Sequence record: MH051917
Source: Enterobacteria phage vB_EcoM_IME341
Length of the DNA stretch: 64,000 nt
Strand: one strand, 5' to 3'
In this document: positions 18,765-61,290 of the stretch, in pieces
How the letters are laid out: each line of letters starts with the position of its first letter
Position numbering within the stretch: position 1 is the first letter of the stretch
Translations under genes and position numbers: made by a program
The notes under the pieces: generated by a model
What the model was told of the DNA's origin: nothing
Database searches by the model: none
What the model saw: the letters and a program-made list of their open reading frames with translations, nothing else

Positions 18765-19259
18765 ATGGATATTTTTGATATGTTACGTCAAGACGAAGGT
18801 CTTGATTTAAATCTTTATAAAGACACCGAAGGTTATTGGACTATTGGGATTGGCCAGTTGATTACCAAAAACCCTTCAAAAGATGTTGCTCGTGCCGAAC
18901 TTGATAAGCTTATGGGCCGGGTTTGCAACGGTCGTATTACTATGGCTGAAGCTGAACAACTCTTTAACCGATCGGTTGAAAATGCTCGTAGAGCTATTCT
19001 GCGTAATCCTAAATTGAAACCTGTTTATGATGTACTGGACGAAGTTCGTCGTTGTGCTTTAATTAACATGGTCTTCCAGATGGGTGAAGCAGGTGTAGCT
19101 GGGTTCACTAACTCTTTACGTATGCTCCAACAGAAACGTTGGGACGATGCGGCAGTTAACCTGGCTCAATCCCGTTGGTATAAACAAACTCCTAATCGTG
19201 CTAAGCGCGTGATTTCAACATTTAAAACAGGTACTTGGAAAGCATATGAAAACTTATAA
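18765..19259 (+). CDS. e: endolysin (T4 lysozyme, gene e)
   Basis: 164 aa; [54 protein letters not shown]; highly similar to T4 lysozyme. Confidence 0.95.
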
Positions 19260-20527: not shown

Positions 20528-21055
20528 ATGAAATTTTTAACTCCCATTTATCTAACCTTAATGCACGCCTTCGCTGAACGCGCCATTGAACGTTTAGACT
20601 CAGACCAATATACCTGGTATGAACCTGCTTCAAGAATGCAAGAGTTTGGTACTCTTCGACTTGATGGCGGACGCCAAACAGGTAAAACAAGTGCCCTTGC
20701 TCAGTTCGCAGCTGATTGGGTTTCCAAGGGTAATGATGTGATTGTTATGTCAAGTTCTTCGCATCGCTCGCGGGAAATCTGTAATATAATAAAGCGGGTT
20801 TCTAAGGCACAACCGCATCTTAATGTTGACCAACCCGGTTTTATCGTCTACGATACTGTTCGTTCATTTTTAGATGAAGATCATTTCCATAAGTACCGTG
20901 GGCTATCTGTTACCCGATTATTGATTATTATTGAAGAGCCGATGCGCCTTCCGGCAATGGATAAGTTCTATGAAGCTTATCAGGTAATGATTAATAAATT
21001 TATGTGCCAAGGCGACAAACCTTTACCTCTGTTCTTTGTGATAGGAATGCAATGA
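20528..21055 (+). CDS. P-loop NTPase of unknown function
   Basis: Walker A GGRQTGKTS; 175 aa. Confidence 0.55.
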   Translation: MKFLTPIYLTLMHAFAERAIERLDSDQYTWYEPASRMQEFGTLRLDGGRQTGKTSALAQFAADWVSKGNDVIVMSSSSHRSREICNIIKRVSKAQPHLNVDQPGFIVYDTVRSFLDEDHFHKYRGLSVTRLLIIIEEPMRLPAMDKFYEAYQVMINKFMCQGDKPLPLFFVIGMQ

Positions 21056-21348: not shown

Positions 21349-21559
21349 ATTGACAATTGAAGGCTCTGATGAAGCTCTGAAGATGTTTGTTGACTGGTTC
21401 CACGGACAGGGCGAACAAGGCTTTTTGGAATGTTGGGATGGCGGACGCTGGAATGGTAAAGAAACCGTTTATCCTAGCACATATATCTCTGTTCGTGGTG
21501 GATATGACGGGATTCATTTAGTTGAATACGATATTGCATCTGATGAGGAAGTGAAATGA
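21341..21559 (+). CDS. hypothetical protein
   Basis: 72 aa, overlaps previous gene end. Confidence 0.45.
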   Translation: MSKLTIEGSDEALKMFVDWFHGQGEQGFLECWDGGRWNGKETVYPSTYISVRGGYDGIHLVEYDIASDEEVK

Positions 21560-21834
21560 TTGAAGATATTAAGGGTTACAAACCACATACCGACGACAAA
21601 ATCAGTAAAGTGAACGCGATTAAAGATGCTGAAGTTCGATTAGGGTTAATCTTTAAAGCCTTGGAAGAAGAATATGTTGAAGCCTTTACATGCTCGGGTG
21701 TTGACAAAATGAGTGATGAAGAATTCAACCTCACCCATGAACGCCTAGCCCAGATTCGTACGGCAATCGAACGCTTGAAAGAAGCAAGCATGTGGGCGTG
21801 TCGTTCCGTTTTCCAGCCCGAGGAAAAATACTGA
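21556..21834 (+). CDS. hypothetical protein
   Basis: 92 aa, ATGA overlap. Confidence 0.45.
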   Translation: MIEDIKGYKPHTDDKISKVNAIKDAEVRLGLIFKALEEEYVEAFTCSGVDKMSDEEFNLTHERLAQIRTAIERLKEASMWACRSVFQPEEKY

Positions 21835-22043
21835 TGAAAATTGAAAGTTTACAAGATTTCCAGCGTATCATTGGTGAAGCCTGTACCGGCTACCACAAAT
21901 ACTTGCTTGACGACCAAATGGCTTGTCTCGAAGAAGGTGAAGTACAGTATGCAGCCCAACGCCTTGAACAAGTGAAAGAGTTTTATCCTGTATTGGTAGA
22001 AATTTGTTCAGCTGCTGGAAAACTTACCCCATTCCAAGAATAA
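21834..22043 (+). CDS. hypothetical protein
   Basis: 69 aa from ATG overlapping previous TGA. Confidence 0.45.
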   Translation: MKIESLQDFQRIIGEACTGYHKYLLDDQMACLEEGEVQYAAQRLEQVKEFYPVLVEICSAAGKLTPFQE

Positions 22044-22047
22044 AGCA

Positions 22048-22076
22048 GTTTACATCTCCTGTAGACATGATACTAT
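22048..22076 (+). promoter_or_regulatory. early promoter cassette with RBS-sequestering inverted repeat
   Basis: gtttacatctcctgtagacatgatactataaacctatcaactacaggag; arms ctcctgtag / ctacaggag (SD in 3' arm). Confidence 0.6.
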
Positions 22077-22104
22077 AAACCTATCAACTACAGGAGATTA
22101 CAAA

Positions 22105-22563
22105 ATGTCAGAAATTAATTCAGAAGTATTCATCCGCCGCAACAAATTACGTCGTCAGTTCGAAACCGAATTCCGTGAACTGAATGCGTCCATCAAAAAA
22201 GCCGCCATTAAGAGCGGTGTCCCAGCCTTCTTTATTAAGTACTCTAATCACTTGTTGGACCGTGCTATCCAACGTGAAATCGACGAAAAATACGTTTTTG
22301 CTTTATTCAAGCAACTCCATAACCATGTTAAAGAAATCCACGAATTCTTAATCCAGGAACCTCTGCCTGATGTAGAATCCGAAATTGTCCCTGGTAAAGT
22401 GTATCGTCCATTGCGTCTCGAAATTACCGATAAAACCTTATGGCTAGGTATGACAGTAGACCGTAAACATCCTGATAAAGGATATTCCCTTAAATGTCGT
22501 ATGGCATTTGTTAACTCTAAACGTTTAGAAGGTAAAACCAGCACTAAAGTAATCTATCTTTAA
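22105..22563 (+). CDS. hypothetical protein
   Basis: 152 aa after cassette. Confidence 0.5.
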   Translation: MSEINSEVFIRRNKLRRQFETEFRELNASIKKAAIKSGVPAFFIKYSNHLLDRAIQREIDEKYVFALFKQLHNHVKEIHEFLIQEPLPDVESEIVPGKVYRPLRLEITDKTLWLGMTVDRKHPDKGYSLKCRMAFVNSKRLEGKTSTKVIYL

Positions 22564-22575
22564 TAATGAGGTCTC

Positions 22576-23115
22576 ATGAAAAAAGTATTAGCCACTTTAC
22601 TATTGACAGTTAGTATGTCTGCCCATAGCGTAGAGCCTACTTTCAGTAATGAACAACTCGATAATTTACATTACGCGTATGCTTTCGGTGAACAATACCA
22701 AAAGTCGGGAAAGTTCAAAGAAAACCCTAATCAAAAAGGATTAGGATATATCATGGCCGGATTACTATGGCAGGAATCATCCGCCGGAATTAATCAAGGT
22801 TTAAATAAAGATAAGCACCATGCTTATGGCATGTTCCAAAATTACTTGCCTACGTTAAGAAGTCGTGTTCAACAGGTAGGTTGGAAGATGTCAGACAAAG
22901 AAATAATTCGTATGGTCCAAAAACGACAGAACAGTGCCTCTTGGGCCTACATTGAGCTGTCTTATTGGATTGATGTTCACAAAGGTGACCTGAGAAAAGC
23001 GATTGCTTCTTATAATGCGGGCTGGAACGTCAAAGCAGGCAGTAAGTATGCTTCTGAAGTTCTAGAAAAGGCCAATTACCTAAAATCTAAAAAGATGTTT
23101 GAGGCGGTATATTAA
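22576..23115 (+). CDS. secreted lytic transglycosylase-like protein (SLT domain)
   Basis: Signal peptide MKKVLATLLLTVSMSAHS; SLT motifs ES (WQESSAG), YGMFQ, ASYNAG. Confidence 0.65.
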   Translation: MKKVLATLLLTVSMSAHSVEPTFSNEQLDNLHYAYAFGEQYQKSGKFKENPNQKGLGYIMAGLLWQESSAGINQGLNKDKHHAYGMFQNYLPTLRSRVQQVGWKMSDKEIIRMVQKRQNSASWAYIELSYWIDVHKGDLRKAIASYNAGWNVKAGSKYASEVLEKANYLKSKKMFEAVY

Positions 23116-23472
23116 ATGATTAAGCAGATGACTATAGCGCTTATGTTGATCGCTCCGGGAGTATTAGCGTCACAAGTTGATGATAGCAATAATTCAATTG
23201 TTGAGTATGCTACCCGCACAGCAAAAGATTATTGTCATCCAAGTAATACTGAATGCGTTATCGAATTCAGTTCAAAAATCACAGCGGCTTTTAAAGATGG
23301 ACAGAACGACGTAGAGCATCGCAGAATGAAAGAGAAAACTCTTTCTAAAAGGTACGAGCAACGTCTAAACGTTACTGAATGTGTTCCATCTGATAAAAAG
23401 TACAAAGAAATGTGTGCGTCTATGGTAGACAGACTCGTTGACTCATACAACCGAGGATTAAACTCTAAATGA
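23116..23472 (+). CDS. secreted protein of unknown function
   Basis: 118 aa with N-terminal signal peptide MIKQMTIALMLIAPGVLAS, four Cys. Confidence 0.5.
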   Translation: MIKQMTIALMLIAPGVLASQVDDSNNSIVEYATRTAKDYCHPSNTECVIEFSSKITAAFKDGQNDVEHRRMKEKTLSKRYEQRLNVTECVPSDKKYKEMCASMVDRLVDSYNRGLNSK

Positions 23473-23936
23473 TTATTGATTATATTAAGGGCGATATAGT
23501 CGCCCTGTTTCTTCAAGGTAATAATGTTGCACACGGGTGCAATTGTTTCCATACAATGGGTTCAGGTGTAGCCGGACAATTGGCTAAGGCTTATCCGCCT
23601 ATTCTCGCTATCGATAAAACCACTTATTTAGGTGGGGTAGAAAAACTTGGCACGTTTACCCAAGCCACAGGTAATAATGGCCAAATTTGCTATAATCTTT
23701 ATACGCAATACGAACCTGGCCCTAATCTTGATTATGGTGCTTTAGTAAACTGTATGATAGAATTAAACCGTACCGCAAAGGGTCTTTTGTTTAAACCCAG
23801 AATTTATATTCCTCGCATCGGTTGTGGTATTGCTGGTGGTGATTGGGACAAGGTTTATCAATTGATTAATTTGTTTACTCCTGATATTAATTTAGTGGTG
23901 GTAGATTATGAAAGCCCATTACCCACATCCGTTTGA
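23469..23936 (+). CDS. macro domain (ADP-ribose-binding/processing) protein
   Basis: 155 aa; N-terminal glycine-rich loop NVAHGCNC...MGSGVAGQ and C-terminal GCGIAGGDW as in macro domains. Confidence 0.55.
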   Translation: MIIDYIKGDIVALFLQGNNVAHGCNCFHTMGSGVAGQLAKAYPPILAIDKTTYLGGVEKLGTFTQATGNNGQICYNLYTQYEPGPNLDYGALVNCMIELNRTAKGLLFKPRIYIPRIGCGIAGGDWDKVYQLINLFTPDINLVVVDYESPLPTSV

Positions 23937-24120
23937 CCCTAAAAACAAAGCGGAAATTATTCGACGCTGGACCGAAACCCGAGTAACCAAATGTCCTATA
24001 AAAAGTCAACACAACACCGATAAATGGTATATCGGTGAATACGTTGAATATACTTTTATAGATAAAAATAAACGTAAACATCATGTAGAAGAATATTGCT
24101 TAAAGGTGCAATGGCTATGA
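23908..24120 (+). CDS. hypothetical basic protein
   Basis: 70 aa ORF overlapping previous gene 3' end. Confidence 0.35.
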   Translation: MKAHYPHPFDPKNKAEIIRRWTETRVTKCPIKSQHNTDKWYIGEYVEYTFIDKNKRKHHVEEYCLKVQWL

Positions 24121-24302
24121 GTCTGAGTAAAGAACAGAAAGATAAATTGTTTGAGCTTATCCATGAGCTTTTGGATGAGCATACAGAAGCAAACGCCTTT
24201 TATGATGAATACGGTCCAATAGATGCCGAACATCAGGAAGAATTTGCCAATCGATTTGATGAGAAAGAAAATGAATTAATAGCTTATGTAAATAGTCTTT
24301 AA
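24117..24302 (+). CDS. small acidic protein
   Basis: 61 aa from ATG overlapping previous TGA. Confidence 0.4.
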   Translation: MSLSKEQKDKLFELIHELLDEHTEANAFYDEYGPIDAEHQEEFANRFDEKENELIAYVNSL

Positions 24303-24311
24303 GAAGGTAAT

Positions 24312-24884
24312 ATGGCCCAACTTTATTTTCACTACGCAGCAATGAATTCCGGGAAGACCGCTTCATTGCTAACAGCCGCTCATAACTACAAAGAACGTGG
24401 TATGGGCGTACTTCTTTTAAAGCCTGCGATAGACAATAGAGAATCAAGCCATAGCATTTCGTCTCGTATAGGGATTAGCCAAGAGGCTAATGCAGTGACT
24501 CCAGATATGGACCTATACGAGTTCTATCGTTGGGCTGAATCTCAAAAAGATATCCACTGCGTGTTTGTGGATGAAGCACAGTTCTTAGAACCAATACAGA
24601 TAAAACAACTGGCAAAGATAGTAGACAATTATAATGTTCCAGTTATGTGCTATGGGCTAAGAACTGATTTTCAGGGTAAACTGTTTCCTGGTTCTGCTGA
24701 ATTACTCGCTACAGCAGATAAACTCGTTGAGTACAAAGGTGTGTGCCATTGTGGACGTAAAGCTACTATGACGGCTCGTATCCAAGATGGTATCGCAATT
24801 AAGGACGGTGACCAAGTTTCTATAGGTGGCAACGATTCTTACGTGTCATTGTGCAGGAAGCACTGGATAGAAATAACGAGTTGA
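24312..24884 (+). CDS. tk: thymidine kinase
   Basis: 190 aa; P-loop MNSGKT, VDEAQF, C-terminal Zn ribbon CHCGRKA...CRKH; resembles E. coli Tdk and T4 tk. Confidence 0.9.
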   Translation: MAQLYFHYAAMNSGKTASLLTAAHNYKERGMGVLLLKPAIDNRESSHSISSRIGISQEANAVTPDMDLYEFYRWAESQKDIHCVFVDEAQFLEPIQIKQLAKIVDNYNVPVMCYGLRTDFQGKLFPGSAELLATADKLVEYKGVCHCGRKATMTARIQDGIAIKDGDQVSIGGNDSYVSLCRKHWIEITS

Positions 24885-24891
24885 GGGTACT

Positions 24892-25170
24892 ATGGACCTA
24901 AATTCAAAGATTTTAATTCTAGCGTTCGCTGTGGCTATTTCTTATATTGTTCTTTCGCCTATCATGGATGATGTGGCTTACAAAAGAGAGATAGAGGTTG
25001 TAGCAGCGACGTATAATGCTAATAATAAAGAATGCCCTAATAAAAATGGGATGGATTTAATTAAAGCGCATTATATGCTTTCCATTACCTCGCCTATACA
25101 GAGGAATTGGGTTGAATATAATTTTAACGACGTGTTCTATTCTTATTGTCGTAAGCTTAAAAAGCTATAA
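24892..25170 (+). CDS. small membrane protein
   Basis: 92 aa, N-terminal hydrophobic helix. Confidence 0.45.
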   Translation: MDLNSKILILAFAVAISYIVLSPIMDDVAYKREIEVVAATYNANNKECPNKNGMDLIKAHYMLSITSPIQRNWVEYNFNDVFYSYCRKLKKL

Positions 25171-25262: not shown

Positions 25263-25556
25263 ATGGATATTTTCCGTACAGCGGCTTGTATCCTTATGGC
25301 GGGATGTTTAGGCCCTTCAGTTTCACTAGCAAATGATACCAATGATAAATTGATGGACGCGTTTGCTAGTAGTGCGATGCCTGTTTATGCGCAAATGAGT
25401 AGACCCAGCGTAAAAGCCTCCGAAGATTATTGGGCCTATGTTACGGCTTCCTGGAAGAATTCAAGTTGTCGGACTATAGAAGCGTGCTCAATTGAAGGTC
25501 GTGCCATCGGAGAGCGTTATGCAAAACTAATGAAGGTAGAAGATGAAATTCAATGA
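25263..25556 (+). CDS. predicted lipoprotein
   Basis: Signal peptide with lipobox LMAGC. Confidence 0.5.
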   Translation: MDIFRTAACILMAGCLGPSVSLANDTNDKLMDAFASSAMPVYAQMSRPSVKASEDYWAYVTASWKNSSCRTIEACSIEGRAIGERYAKLMKVEDEIQ

Positions 25557-25926: not shown

Positions 25927-25930
25927 TCAA

Positions 25931-25957
25931 AGGTCTCACTTCGGTGGGACCTTTTTT
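25931..25957 (+). terminator. intrinsic terminator
   Basis: aggtctcac-ttcg-gtgggacct + TTTTTT. Confidence 0.7.
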
Positions 25958-25966
25958 CGTTTAGGT

Positions 25967-25995
25967 GTTTACATCCTCTAGGAACATGATACTAT
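25967..25995 (+). promoter_or_regulatory. early promoter cassette
   Basis: gtttacatcctctaggaacatgatactatagacctatcaactaatgagg. Confidence 0.6.
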
Positions 25996-52119: not shown

Positions 52120-52620
52120 ATGAAAAAGTTAATTATCGCAATGAGTATACTCCTATCAGGTTGCGCGGCCCAATATGGTGATGCAGTTTCAGCCGATGAA
52201 GTTGGTAAAGCTCGTATCGCAGCTGAACAGAAACAATTCGATGGCGAAATGAAATTCCGTGCAGGTTCTGGACTTGTGTATACCCGAGCTAATAATCAAT
52301 GCGGTAATAACTGTGCAAAATATGCTCAAAGGGAAATCGAATTCCAACGTGAACAAGAGTCTAAGCGTGAAGCGGTACTAGCCAAACACCAGGCAGAAAT
52401 GAAGCGCCAAGATGATTTGTACAAAAAGCAGAAACTGTATGCGATGTGCGTAAACCATATCAATCTACAGATTTCTATCCATGAGGCTCGTTATTACGAA
52501 ATGCTCGAAACCGAGAGCTTCGATAAAGCCCGTGATTATAAGAAACAAATCAATAAGCTCAAGACCAAAGTACCGGCGGCAATAGAACAGTGTATTGAAA
52601 TCGGTAAAGATAAGATTTAA
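52120..52620 (+). CDS. predicted lipoprotein
   Basis: Signal peptide with lipobox LLSGC; coiled-coil rest. Confidence 0.55.
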   Translation: MKKLIIAMSILLSGCAAQYGDAVSADEVGKARIAAEQKQFDGEMKFRAGSGLVYTRANNQCGNNCAKYAQREIEFQREQESKREAVLAKHQAEMKRQDDLYKKQKLYAMCVNHINLQISIHEARYYEMLETESFDKARDYKKQINKLKTKVPAAIEQCIEIGKDKI

Positions 52621-60996: not shown

Positions 60997-61290
60997 ATGA
61001 AAAAGTTATTAATCGCAGCAATCCTTACAGTAGCATCATGTGGCACGGCTCCAGTTACGGCTGGATTGGATAAAGACCTTTGTGAATGGTCTATGACTGC
61101 AGACCAAGAATCGGTTGAACATCAGATTTATGCTGATATCATGAACATCACTAAACGCGACCGCCCTGATATGGCTAAAGAAGTGTCAGACCAATTAGCT
61201 TCAGGTGGCGTTATGCAATATAACTATGTTTTGTATTGCGATGCCAATTTCGATAACAAAAATATCGTTAAAGAGGTGACAGGTGAATAA
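60997..61290 (+). CDS. sp: Spackle (Sp) periplasmic protein
   Basis: 97 aa; signal peptide/lipobox LTVASC; DKDLCEWSMTADQ and GGVMQYNYVLYCD resemble T4 Sp (61.3). Confidence 0.75.
   Translation: MKKLLIAAILTVASCGTAPVTAGLDKDLCEWSMTADQESVEHQIYADIMNITKRDRPDMAKEVSDQLASGGVMQYNYVLYCDANFDNKNIVKEVTGE

Follow-up and report, generated by a model that had tools for sequence, protein, structure and literature searches.

Within a 64,000-nt stretch of Enterobacteria phage vB_EcoM_IME341 (sequence record MH051917; hereafter the window, to which all coordinates refer), two open reading frames (ORFs) on the + strand, 22576-23115 and 23116-23472, are near certainly the Dhakavirus orthologues of the T4 early genes vs.1 and vs. 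The first encodes a 179-residue precursor of a predicted exported, single-domain glycosidase of the GH23/SLT fold, a putative lytic transglycosylase. The second encodes the 118-residue precursor of a predicted small, exported, four-helix protein with four cysteines that is currently annotated as 'valyl-tRNA synthetase modifier'. Judging from the sequences, we consider it likely that these orthologues form an exported pair in which Vs.1 is muralytic and Vs may be its modulator. Both ORFs lie, abutting, where an initial annotation made from the DNA letters had placed them.

Gene order and family matches identify the pair. Directly upstream is regB, encoding an endoribonuclease (22105..22563, +; Pfam REGB_T4, E 4.7e-69, and so named in the IME08 and T4 annotation), and directly downstream is tk.4, encoding a macro-domain protein (23469..23936, +; Pfam Macro, E 5.9e-08). 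All genes of the neighborhood are on the + strand, and Pfam and PHROGs searches recovered RegB, the macro-domain Tk.4, thymidine kinase and the RI antiholin among them. A megablast search with positions 22000-24400 matched 656 phage records, the best being Escherichia phage IME08 (Dhakavirus, Straboviridae) with 98.1% identity across the full query span; the IME08 annotations beneath this match are regB, vs.1, vs, tk.4, tk.3 and two further names. In T4 the order is regB - vs.1 - vs - tk.4 - tk.3 - tk.2 - tk.1 - tk - rI.1 - rI, of which regB-vs.1-vs-tk.4 is also found in the window and in IME08. The 22576 ORF matched phrog_600 ('unknown function'; E 1.9e-67, residues 1-177) and the 23116 ORF matched phrog_1256 ('valyl tRNA synthetase modifier'; E 3.7e-34). 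Neighboring genes, synteny with IME08 and T4 and the PHROG matches therefore assign the two ORFs to vs.1 and vs. The Vs.1 of the window is 99-100% identical to existing database proteins. T4 Vs.1 (NP_049725, 'uncharacterized 20.7 kDa protein in vs-regB intergenic region', PHROG 600) occupies the same position between regB and vs and aligns end to end with the family, Tequatrovirus relatives being ~67% identical; with 179 residues in the window and 181 in T4, the same signal layout and the same motifs, there is no difference of substance and the window copy represents a Dhakavirus allele. The Vs of the window is 46% identical to T4 Vs (tau; PHROG 1256; PF26829), likewise lies between vs.1 and tk.4, and keeps all invariant blocks, including the four cysteines and a C-terminal SMVDRLVDSYNRGL block common to the close homologues. 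The genes are tightly packed, with GAGG 4 nt 5' of the vs.1 ATG, the vs ATG abutting the vs.1 TAA without a spacer (TAAATG), and the vs stop overlapping the tk.4 start (ATGA).

We examined whether the predicted structure of Vs.1 contains an SLT fold, the absence of which had been named beforehand as the outcome that would refute the initial annotation. The AlphaFold2 model (pLDDT 87.7, pTM 0.82, disorder confined to the first 20 residues) shows, after the predicted signal peptide, one domain of the lysozyme-like, alpha-helical GH23 (SLT / goose-lysozyme) fold. Foldseek placed MltD, ostrich egg-white g-type lysozyme, Slt and Cj0843c at the top of the PDB matches with probabilities up to 0.99, and the majority of the strong structural neighbors are lytic transglycosylases. 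The model and the Foldseek matches thus give an SLT-type fold and the assignment stands. The three motifs pointed out initially (ES, YGMFQ and ASYNAG) are present as well and their key residues are invariant in an alignment of 44 Vs.1 sequences. In the ES motif, E67-S68 (22774..22779, +), E67 is predicted to be the catalytic residue and lies where a modeled helix spanning residues 57-68 reaches its C-terminal end. Y84-G-M-F-Q-N89 (22825..22842, +, with Y84-Q88 at 22825-22839) takes the place of GLMQ in the family-1 lytic transglycosylases, and A144-S-Y-N-A-G149 (23005..23022, +) corresponds to the AYNAG motif, with Y146, N147, A148 and G149 invariant and followed downstream by the invariant Y158 (23047-23049, +). 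The other invariant positions include W65, E67, S69, G85, Q88, N89, E127 and W131. The pattern ES / G-x-x-Q / AYNAG / Tyr is what we take to be the signature of the bacterial family-1 lytic transglycosylases, and by its sequence Vs.1 retains all of the signature residues.

Profile searches agree with this picture at the level of the family. A database search with Vs.1 returned 100 relatives with identities down to 41%, several of which carry a precomputed PF01464 match or the UniRef name 'Transglycosylase SLT domain-containing protein', and 43 of the 44 aligned family members matched Pfam SLT (PF01464) at E <=0.1, the best at 1.3e-7. A number of results weigh on the other side. The Vs.1 of the window itself reached only 15.9 bits (E 0.0099) against PF01464, under the gathering score of 21.3; a search of the PDB with the single sequence gave no match; and the Foldseek E-values are weak (at least 0.06). 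A family profile searched against the PDB approached g-type lysozymes (including 3mgw and 4g9s) at a non-significant E of 0.36-0.82, its other matches being at chance level (metacaspase-9 and IAPP). The alignment to the g-type lysozymes nevertheless covers the whole domain and sets E67 on the glutamate of their RES motif. None of the NCBIfam models matched Vs.1 or Vs. The idea that Vs.1 is a diverged copy of the gene e lysozyme (18765-19259 in the window) was rejected for lack of detectable similarity (BLASTP E 0.27), in keeping with the distinction from gene e that had been proposed. Overall, Vs.1 is very probably exported and a GH23 enzyme whose active site is intact.

The GH23 fold by itself cannot tell the formation of anhydro-muropeptides from hydrolysis. 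Vs.1 could accordingly be a hydrolytic member of the family, either a muramidase resembling goose-type lysozyme or a chitinase-like enzyme acting on another polymer of N-acetylglucosamine (GlcNAc). In favor of this, the g-type lysozymes, which are GH23 hydrolases, are, apart from the chance-level matches, the only sequences that the family profile approached in the PDB, and the additional invariant acidic residue E127 might serve as a general base. However, even the best similarity to goose-type lysozyme is non-significant (E 0.36), Vs.1 by its sequence carries the motif set that we regard as typical of family-1 lytic transglycosylases, whereas g-type lysozymes hydrolyze, and its strong structural neighbors are chiefly lytic transglycosylases. 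Moreover, the hosts concerned are not known to have a chitin-like polymer of beta-1,4-linked GlcNAc in their periplasm. We regard a hydrolytic Vs.1 as unlikely and, with moderate confidence, take peptidoglycan to be its substrate and lytic transglycosylation, specifically, to be its reaction. Compared with the known family-1 lytic transglycosylases (Slt70, MltC, MltD, MltE, MltF and the small 'specialised' EtgA and VirB1), it differs in being a phage early gene product, in being too divergent for the Pfam gathering score, and in having a family-specific conserved N-terminal helix (residues 23-38) and neither a lipobox nor an accessory domain.

Both precursors begin with a predicted Sec signal peptide of 18 residues. 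Export was called with a heuristic n/h/c rule that asks for a positively charged n-region, a hydrophobic core and a small-x-small cleavage site. In Vs.1 (22576..22629, +) the peptide reads MKKVLATLLLTVSMSAHS|VEP, organized as MKK-VLATLLLTVSMSA-HS|VEP with the site AHS|VEP, and in Vs (23116..23169, +) it reads MIKQMTIALMLIAPGVLA|SQV, organized as MIKQ-MTIALMLIAPGVLA|SQV with the site VLA|SQV; T4 Vs begins with MTKILVLCIGLISFSASASA|DTSY. The hydrophobic core spans 10-13 residues in the two proteins of the window. The same tripartite layout was found by this rule in 44/44 Vs.1 and 26/26 Vs homologues (Kyte-Doolittle mean of the core 1.8-3.75) and in 27/27 aligned distant members of the Vs family; the layout is constant among the homologues of both proteins, while the sequence of the segment varies freely. 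In the structure models, pLDDT is 50-58 over residues 1-20 of Vs.1 and falls below 50 at residues 1-3, 7-10 and 13-21 of Vs. As for the specificity of the rule, it was passed by 8 of the 138 ATG-initiated ORFs of at least 70 residues in the window: Vs.1, Vs, a lipoprotein-like ORF, Spackle and four doubtful ORFs. With such a base rate, two adjacent positives are unlikely to arise by chance. The Spackle (sp) orthologue (60997-61290, +; 97 residues, phrog_1586, E 1.2e-42) served as positive control; Spackle is known to reside in the periplasm and to inhibit the gp5 tail lysozyme. We also considered Vs.1 as a lipoprotein or as an anchored enzyme of the SAR (signal-arrest-release) type and rejected both; as it has no lipobox and a hydrophobic core of only ~13 residues, its N-terminus is taken to be a cleavable signal peptide. 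In the Vs-like proteins of 5 loci, all from one clade, a lipobox (LSGC) replaces the cleavage site. The secretion initially predicted for both ORFs is supported by the heuristic rule and its conservation among homologues, and we find it very likely from these features that Vs, too, is exported.

The partner had initially been described as a secreted, cysteine-containing protein, which held for its predicted signal peptide and its four cysteines, but its identity as the annotated vs gene had been missed. The four conserved cysteine codons of Vs lie within 23233..23415 (+), namely C40 (23233-35), C47 (23254-56), C89 (23380-82) and C100 (23413-15). These residues are invariant in the close homologues and are retained family-wide down to ~17-20% identity; in 27 Vs-like representatives with ~17-27% identity to the Vs of the window, the signal peptide, the four cysteines, G62 and G114 all persist. 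AlphaFold2 modeled Vs as a four-helix bundle (pLDDT 78; helices 23-39, 45-68, 73-89 and 94-115) in which each cysteine pair would flank a helix-helix turn, and we infer that the cysteines pair as disulfides. A single-sequence search of the PDB with Vs returned only noise. In a database search, all 56 relatives of Vs were single-domain proteins of 54-136 residues carrying Pfam PF26829, a family newer than the Pfam copy used for our scans, and a Rosetta-stone test revealed no domain fusions among them. Kinship of Vs with Spackle was dismissed, as hhalign gave a probability of 7% and matched the two at their signal peptides only, and neither homology nor fold likeness of Vs was found to the known periplasmic muramidase inhibitors Spackle, Ivy, PliG and the immunity proteins of type VI secretion systems.

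We then asked how widely the two genes occur and how closely they are linked. Relatives of Vs.1 were detected by tblastn in 2040 of 50,697 phage records, T4 included, among T4-like phages of Escherichia, Klebsiella, Salmonella, Shigella, Aeromonas and Acinetobacter and, at ~30% identity, in FelixO1-like phages and Ackermannviridae (Det7). The initial annotation had called a periplasmic muralytic enzyme of this kind unusual for T4-type phages; with an orthologue in T4 itself, at the canonical position, and this number of records, that view has to be abandoned. Vs was found by tblastn in 794 records as compared with 2040 for Vs.1, so that the two initially seemed only loosely associated. This view changed with Klebsiella phage Roth80 and Acinetobacter phage Melin, which had appeared to lack Vs: the ORF following vs.1 overlaps the vs.1 stop and encodes 106-108 residues with a predicted signal peptide and four cysteines. 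The Vs profile aligned with these ORFs over the full length and at all cysteines (hhalign 97.7%, E 2.3e-12 for Roth80; 69.8%, E 4e-5 for Melin). For a broader view, we took 69 IMG/VR loci encoding Vs.1 relatives, from 100% down to 26% identity, and searched their ORFs with a hidden Markov model (HMM) seeded on the widened Vs-like set. A Vs-like ORF on the same strand as vs.1 was present in 63/69 loci, with E-values from 1e-60 to 1e-7 in all but one of them; in locus L039 the ORF is split in two, the better fragment scoring E 9.6e-09. The start of the Vs-like ORF lies -8 to +25 nt from the vs.1 stop in 55/69 loci and 0.3-1.2 kb downstream in 8 loci, where Vs.1 is 34-38% identical. Hence, across T4-like phages with Vs.1 identities down to ~41%, a Vs-like gene abuts or overlaps vs.1 directly at its 3' side, and in more distant relatives it is found on the same strand within 1.2 kb.

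The linkage has exceptions, and these speak against a fixed partnership. No Vs-like ORF was detected by the HMM in 6/69 loci, four of them Aeromonas-type and two on 310-kb jumbo-phage contigs, and none was noticed beside Vs.1 in the FelixO1 and Det7 loci as read, where no HMM was run. As Vs.1 is found in several lineages without Vs, Vs is not obligatory for Vs.1. In vB_EcoM_005, the nearest relative of the window (L008, 3041-3298), Vs.1 is 100% identical to that of the window while vs is truncated to an ORF of 85 residues with 2 of the 4 cysteines. The truncation reflects either a sequencing error or a natural knock-out of vs in a phage that keeps vs.1 intact. Two further observations concern what follows vs.1 in other phages. 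In the four Aeromonas-type loci (L060-L062 and L074), the region ~0.3-0.9 kb downstream of vs.1 encodes a protein of 140-146 residues that resembles a signal-peptide-bearing protein or a lipoprotein and has ...YGC close to where the hydrophobic core ends in 3 of the 4 loci. Its gene is directly 5' of the macro-domain gene in 3 of the 4, L061 ending before that point, and the protein could be an analogue of Vs. Separately, Roth80 (L005, 2363-2755) and Melin (L004, 2312-2737) encode a third signal-peptide protein of 130-141 residues after the Vs-like gene, with the common C-terminus ...RV(Y/W)N..NEY.TYK...; it is not present in the window or in T4, where vs runs directly into tk.4.

The name of vs points elsewhere. 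In T4 and in every close relative the gene is annotated 'valyl-tRNA synthetase modifier', and while the sequence features of the protein indicate the periplasm, this name implies the cytoplasm. Classical work ascribed to the vs product a role in the cytoplasm: a ~10-kDa phage polypeptide, tau, binds the cytoplasmic valyl-tRNA synthetase (ValRS), and temperature-sensitive ValRS is stabilized after infection. Binding of the vs product to host ValRS is also stated, on the basis of cited literature, in two more recent sources (PMC8076793 and the HIDEN-SEQ preprint). These records tell against a periplasmic Vs, and the predicted export features clash with a cytoplasmic site of action on ValRS: either the ORF was wrongly assigned, or the ValRS interaction is secondary, or export is incomplete. 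Vs might thus be a cytoplasmic tau that modifies ValRS, with a poor or partial export signal at its N-terminus, an adjacency to vs.1 that reflects only operon organization, and Vs.1 alone in the periplasm. We treat this as a possible but doubtful explanation. Besides the annotation and the cited binding, it draws support from the lineages that have Vs.1 without Vs, and from the size of mature Vs, which at ~11 kDa (13 kDa for the precursor) is compatible with a 10-kDa tau; the mature form would fit the classical estimate as well as or better than the precursor. It is opposed by the signal-peptide layout in all of more than 50 diverse members despite the poor conservation of the segment itself, by the lipobox of one clade, sensible only for an exported protein, by the four cysteines conserved to ~17-20% identity at two helix-helix turns, and by the fact that the Vs gene is tightly linked, in 55/69 loci, to that of an exported enzyme, frequently with overlapping start and stop. 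In addition, full-length T4 Vs carrying an N-terminal His tag proved insoluble when produced in the E. coli cytoplasm (PMC8076793). Tentatively, we propose instead that Vs is an exported, disulfide-stabilized periplasmic protein that forms a conserved two-gene module with Vs.1 and likely inhibits or regulates it, the ValRS label reflecting a mis-assigned ORF or a secondary or in-extract interaction.

On the proposal of a periplasmic module, Vs.1 and Vs would be exported early in infection and their signal peptides cleaved. Vs.1 would then cleave the beta-1,4 bond between N-acetylmuramic acid (MurNAc) and GlcNAc in host peptidoglycan, with Glu67 as the single acid/base and most likely a 1,6-anhydroMurNAc product, and would remodel or loosen the sacculus but not, on its own, lyse the cell. 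We infer that controlled loosening or remodeling of the sacculus during infection would be the physiological purpose. Vs, once oxidized to a two-disulfide helical bundle, would influence this periplasmic process too, its most likely role being stoichiometric modulation (inhibition) of Vs.1. Comparable arrangements would be the restraint of the gp5 lysozyme by Spackle or that of a muramidase effector by its periplasmic immunity protein; the closest systems among small periplasmic glycosidase inhibitors are T4 Spackle-gp5 lysozyme, Ivy/PliG and the type VI immunity protein Tsi3. That Vs acts with or on Vs.1 is a real possibility, if short of probable, and the narrower claim that it inhibits the enzyme is put forward with more reserve.

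Published T4 data bear on these roles. Transcripts of vs.1 and vs are early and both proteins have been detected (PMC9697503 supplement). In a saturating transposon screen, both genes were non-essential in LB medium, with 46/52 (vs.1) and 30/32 (vs) TA sites hit (bioRxiv 10.1101/2025.11.20.689424). Mean read counts in the LB control were nonetheless 26.6 for vs and 22.6 for vs.1 as compared with 179 for regB, 290 for tk.4, 265 for vs.4 and 652 for vs.3, placing vs and vs.1 mutants ~7- to 30-fold under their neighbors (same preprint). In the comparison of LB with M9-glucose (its Data S8), vs was the most depleted gene (log2 fold change -2.19, adjusted p 0) and the depletion of vs.1 was mild (-0.87, p 0.0055, adjusted p 0.155). 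From the read counts and the depletion, both genes add to fitness and the loss of vs is worse than that of vs.1. This order fits an inhibitor model, because losing the inhibitor would be worse than losing the enzyme. Several considerations pull the other way: the order fits equally well with independent functions of the two genes if insertions in vs.1 are to some extent polar on vs, the milder depletion of vs.1 could itself be mere polarity on vs, and the minimal-medium phenotype of vs, in a setting where amino-acid supply and translation are limiting, fits a role in these processes, and hence a cytoplasmic Vs, at least as well as one in the cell wall.

The same data inform two further alternatives. 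Vs could be a positive partner of Vs.1, such as an export or folding chaperone, an activator or a targeting subunit. Co-conservation and translational coupling suit any stoichiometric partnership, and mutants of both genes are similarly under-represented in LB competition. Yet a partner acting only through Vs.1 would make the loss of vs.1 at least as harmful as that of vs, whereas vs is by far the more depleted in minimal medium, and several phage lineages have Vs.1 but no detected Vs; we therefore give this role little credence. Alternatively, Vs.1 could be a Sec-delivered auxiliary or back-up endolysin for lysis at the end of infection, with Vs unrelated or merely delaying lysis. Its predicted exported muralytic fold would be suited to this, and vs.1 and its relatives lie near genes of lysis or lysis timing, namely rI in the window, T4 and Melin, and rIIA/rIIB with an Rz-like spanin in FelixO1. 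On the other hand, T4 vs.1 is expressed early and not late, and it is non-essential whereas t scored as essential in the same screen, with no insertions recovered. The window also encodes its own e lysozyme, and T4 e mutants fail to lyse, so that Vs.1 cannot suffice for lysis. An endolysin role appears improbable to us, and non-lytic remodeling of the sacculus with Vs as a modulator remains the reading that we prefer.

Parts of this were known before. The SLT similarity of Vs.1 was already published in 2006 by Nolan et al., who credited earlier PSI-BLAST matches for T4 (PMC1524935), and the vs.1/vs pair is known and annotated, so that nothing in the initial annotation is new as originally stated. 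Its observation was correct and its interpretation partly supported: the SLT fold and secretion found support, the supposed rarity did not. What is added here, from sequence comparison and modeling, is a predicted four-helix Vs with four family-wide cysteines, a signal-peptide layout in every homologue and a tight linkage to vs.1. With its 2040 records, vs.1 is one of the accessory genes found most widely among the large virulent myophages that infect Gram-negative hosts. An early exported enzyme that cleaves peptidoglycan without lysis, as predicted here, represents a gap in the envelope program of T4, which is otherwise well charted and comprises gp5, Spackle, Imm, RI, T, E and the spanins. 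The evidence for export of Vs stands against its textbook role at a time when the 2025 screen ranks vs as the strongest conditionally required T4 gene in minimal medium. If the periplasmic proposal is true, the classical gene vs could be re-assigned, and its requirement in minimal medium would reflect uncontrolled cell-wall cleavage and not translation.

Other features of the window surround or resemble the pair. Database records still name the tk.4 product (23469-23936, +) a 'phosphatase'. The 92-residue ORF at 21556-21834 (+) is the counterpart of IME08 vs.4, and T4 Vs.4 is the cyclic-nucleotide sponge Acb2. T4 Tk.4 has been named AdfM, an anti-DarTG2 factor that probably strips ADP-ribose from DNA (bioRxiv 10.1101/2025.11.20.689424). 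With vs.4 as Acb2 and tk.4 as AdfM, anti-defense genes and the vs.1/vs pair are intermingled in the segment running from vs.4 to tk.4. Further upstream, a vs.8 orthologue (20528-21055, +; phrog_1488) gave weak matches resembling P-loop nucleoside triphosphatases (STAND NTPase, AAA_14 and terminase N-terminal, E 0.002-0.07). Downstream, a 92-residue ORF with an N-terminal hydrophobic segment (24892-25170, +; phrog_6298, unknown) occupies the position of T4 rI.1, just 5' of the rI antiholin gene (25263-25556, +; Pfam Antiholin, E 5.9e-24). The lipoprotein-like ORF that passed the signal-peptide rule (52120-52620, +) encodes 166 residues with a textbook lipobox (MKKLIIAMSILLSGC) and 5 cysteines, belongs to phrog_1754 (function unknown) and is predicted to be exported.

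Finally, a consensus scan found a sigma-70-like promoter match (TTTACA-16 nt-TACTAT with TG) at 22049..22076 (+), just 5' of regB, a possible candidate by sequence for an early promoter of regB-vs.1-vs-tk.4. Promoter-like sites in the window were not enriched over shuffled sequences (20 found, 17.8 expected), so that such a match is weak evidence. Past the rI gene, a strong terminator-like hairpin with an 11-bp stem followed by a T-run (25929-25954, +) precedes a second promoter match of the same form as the one upstream of regB (25968-25995, +).

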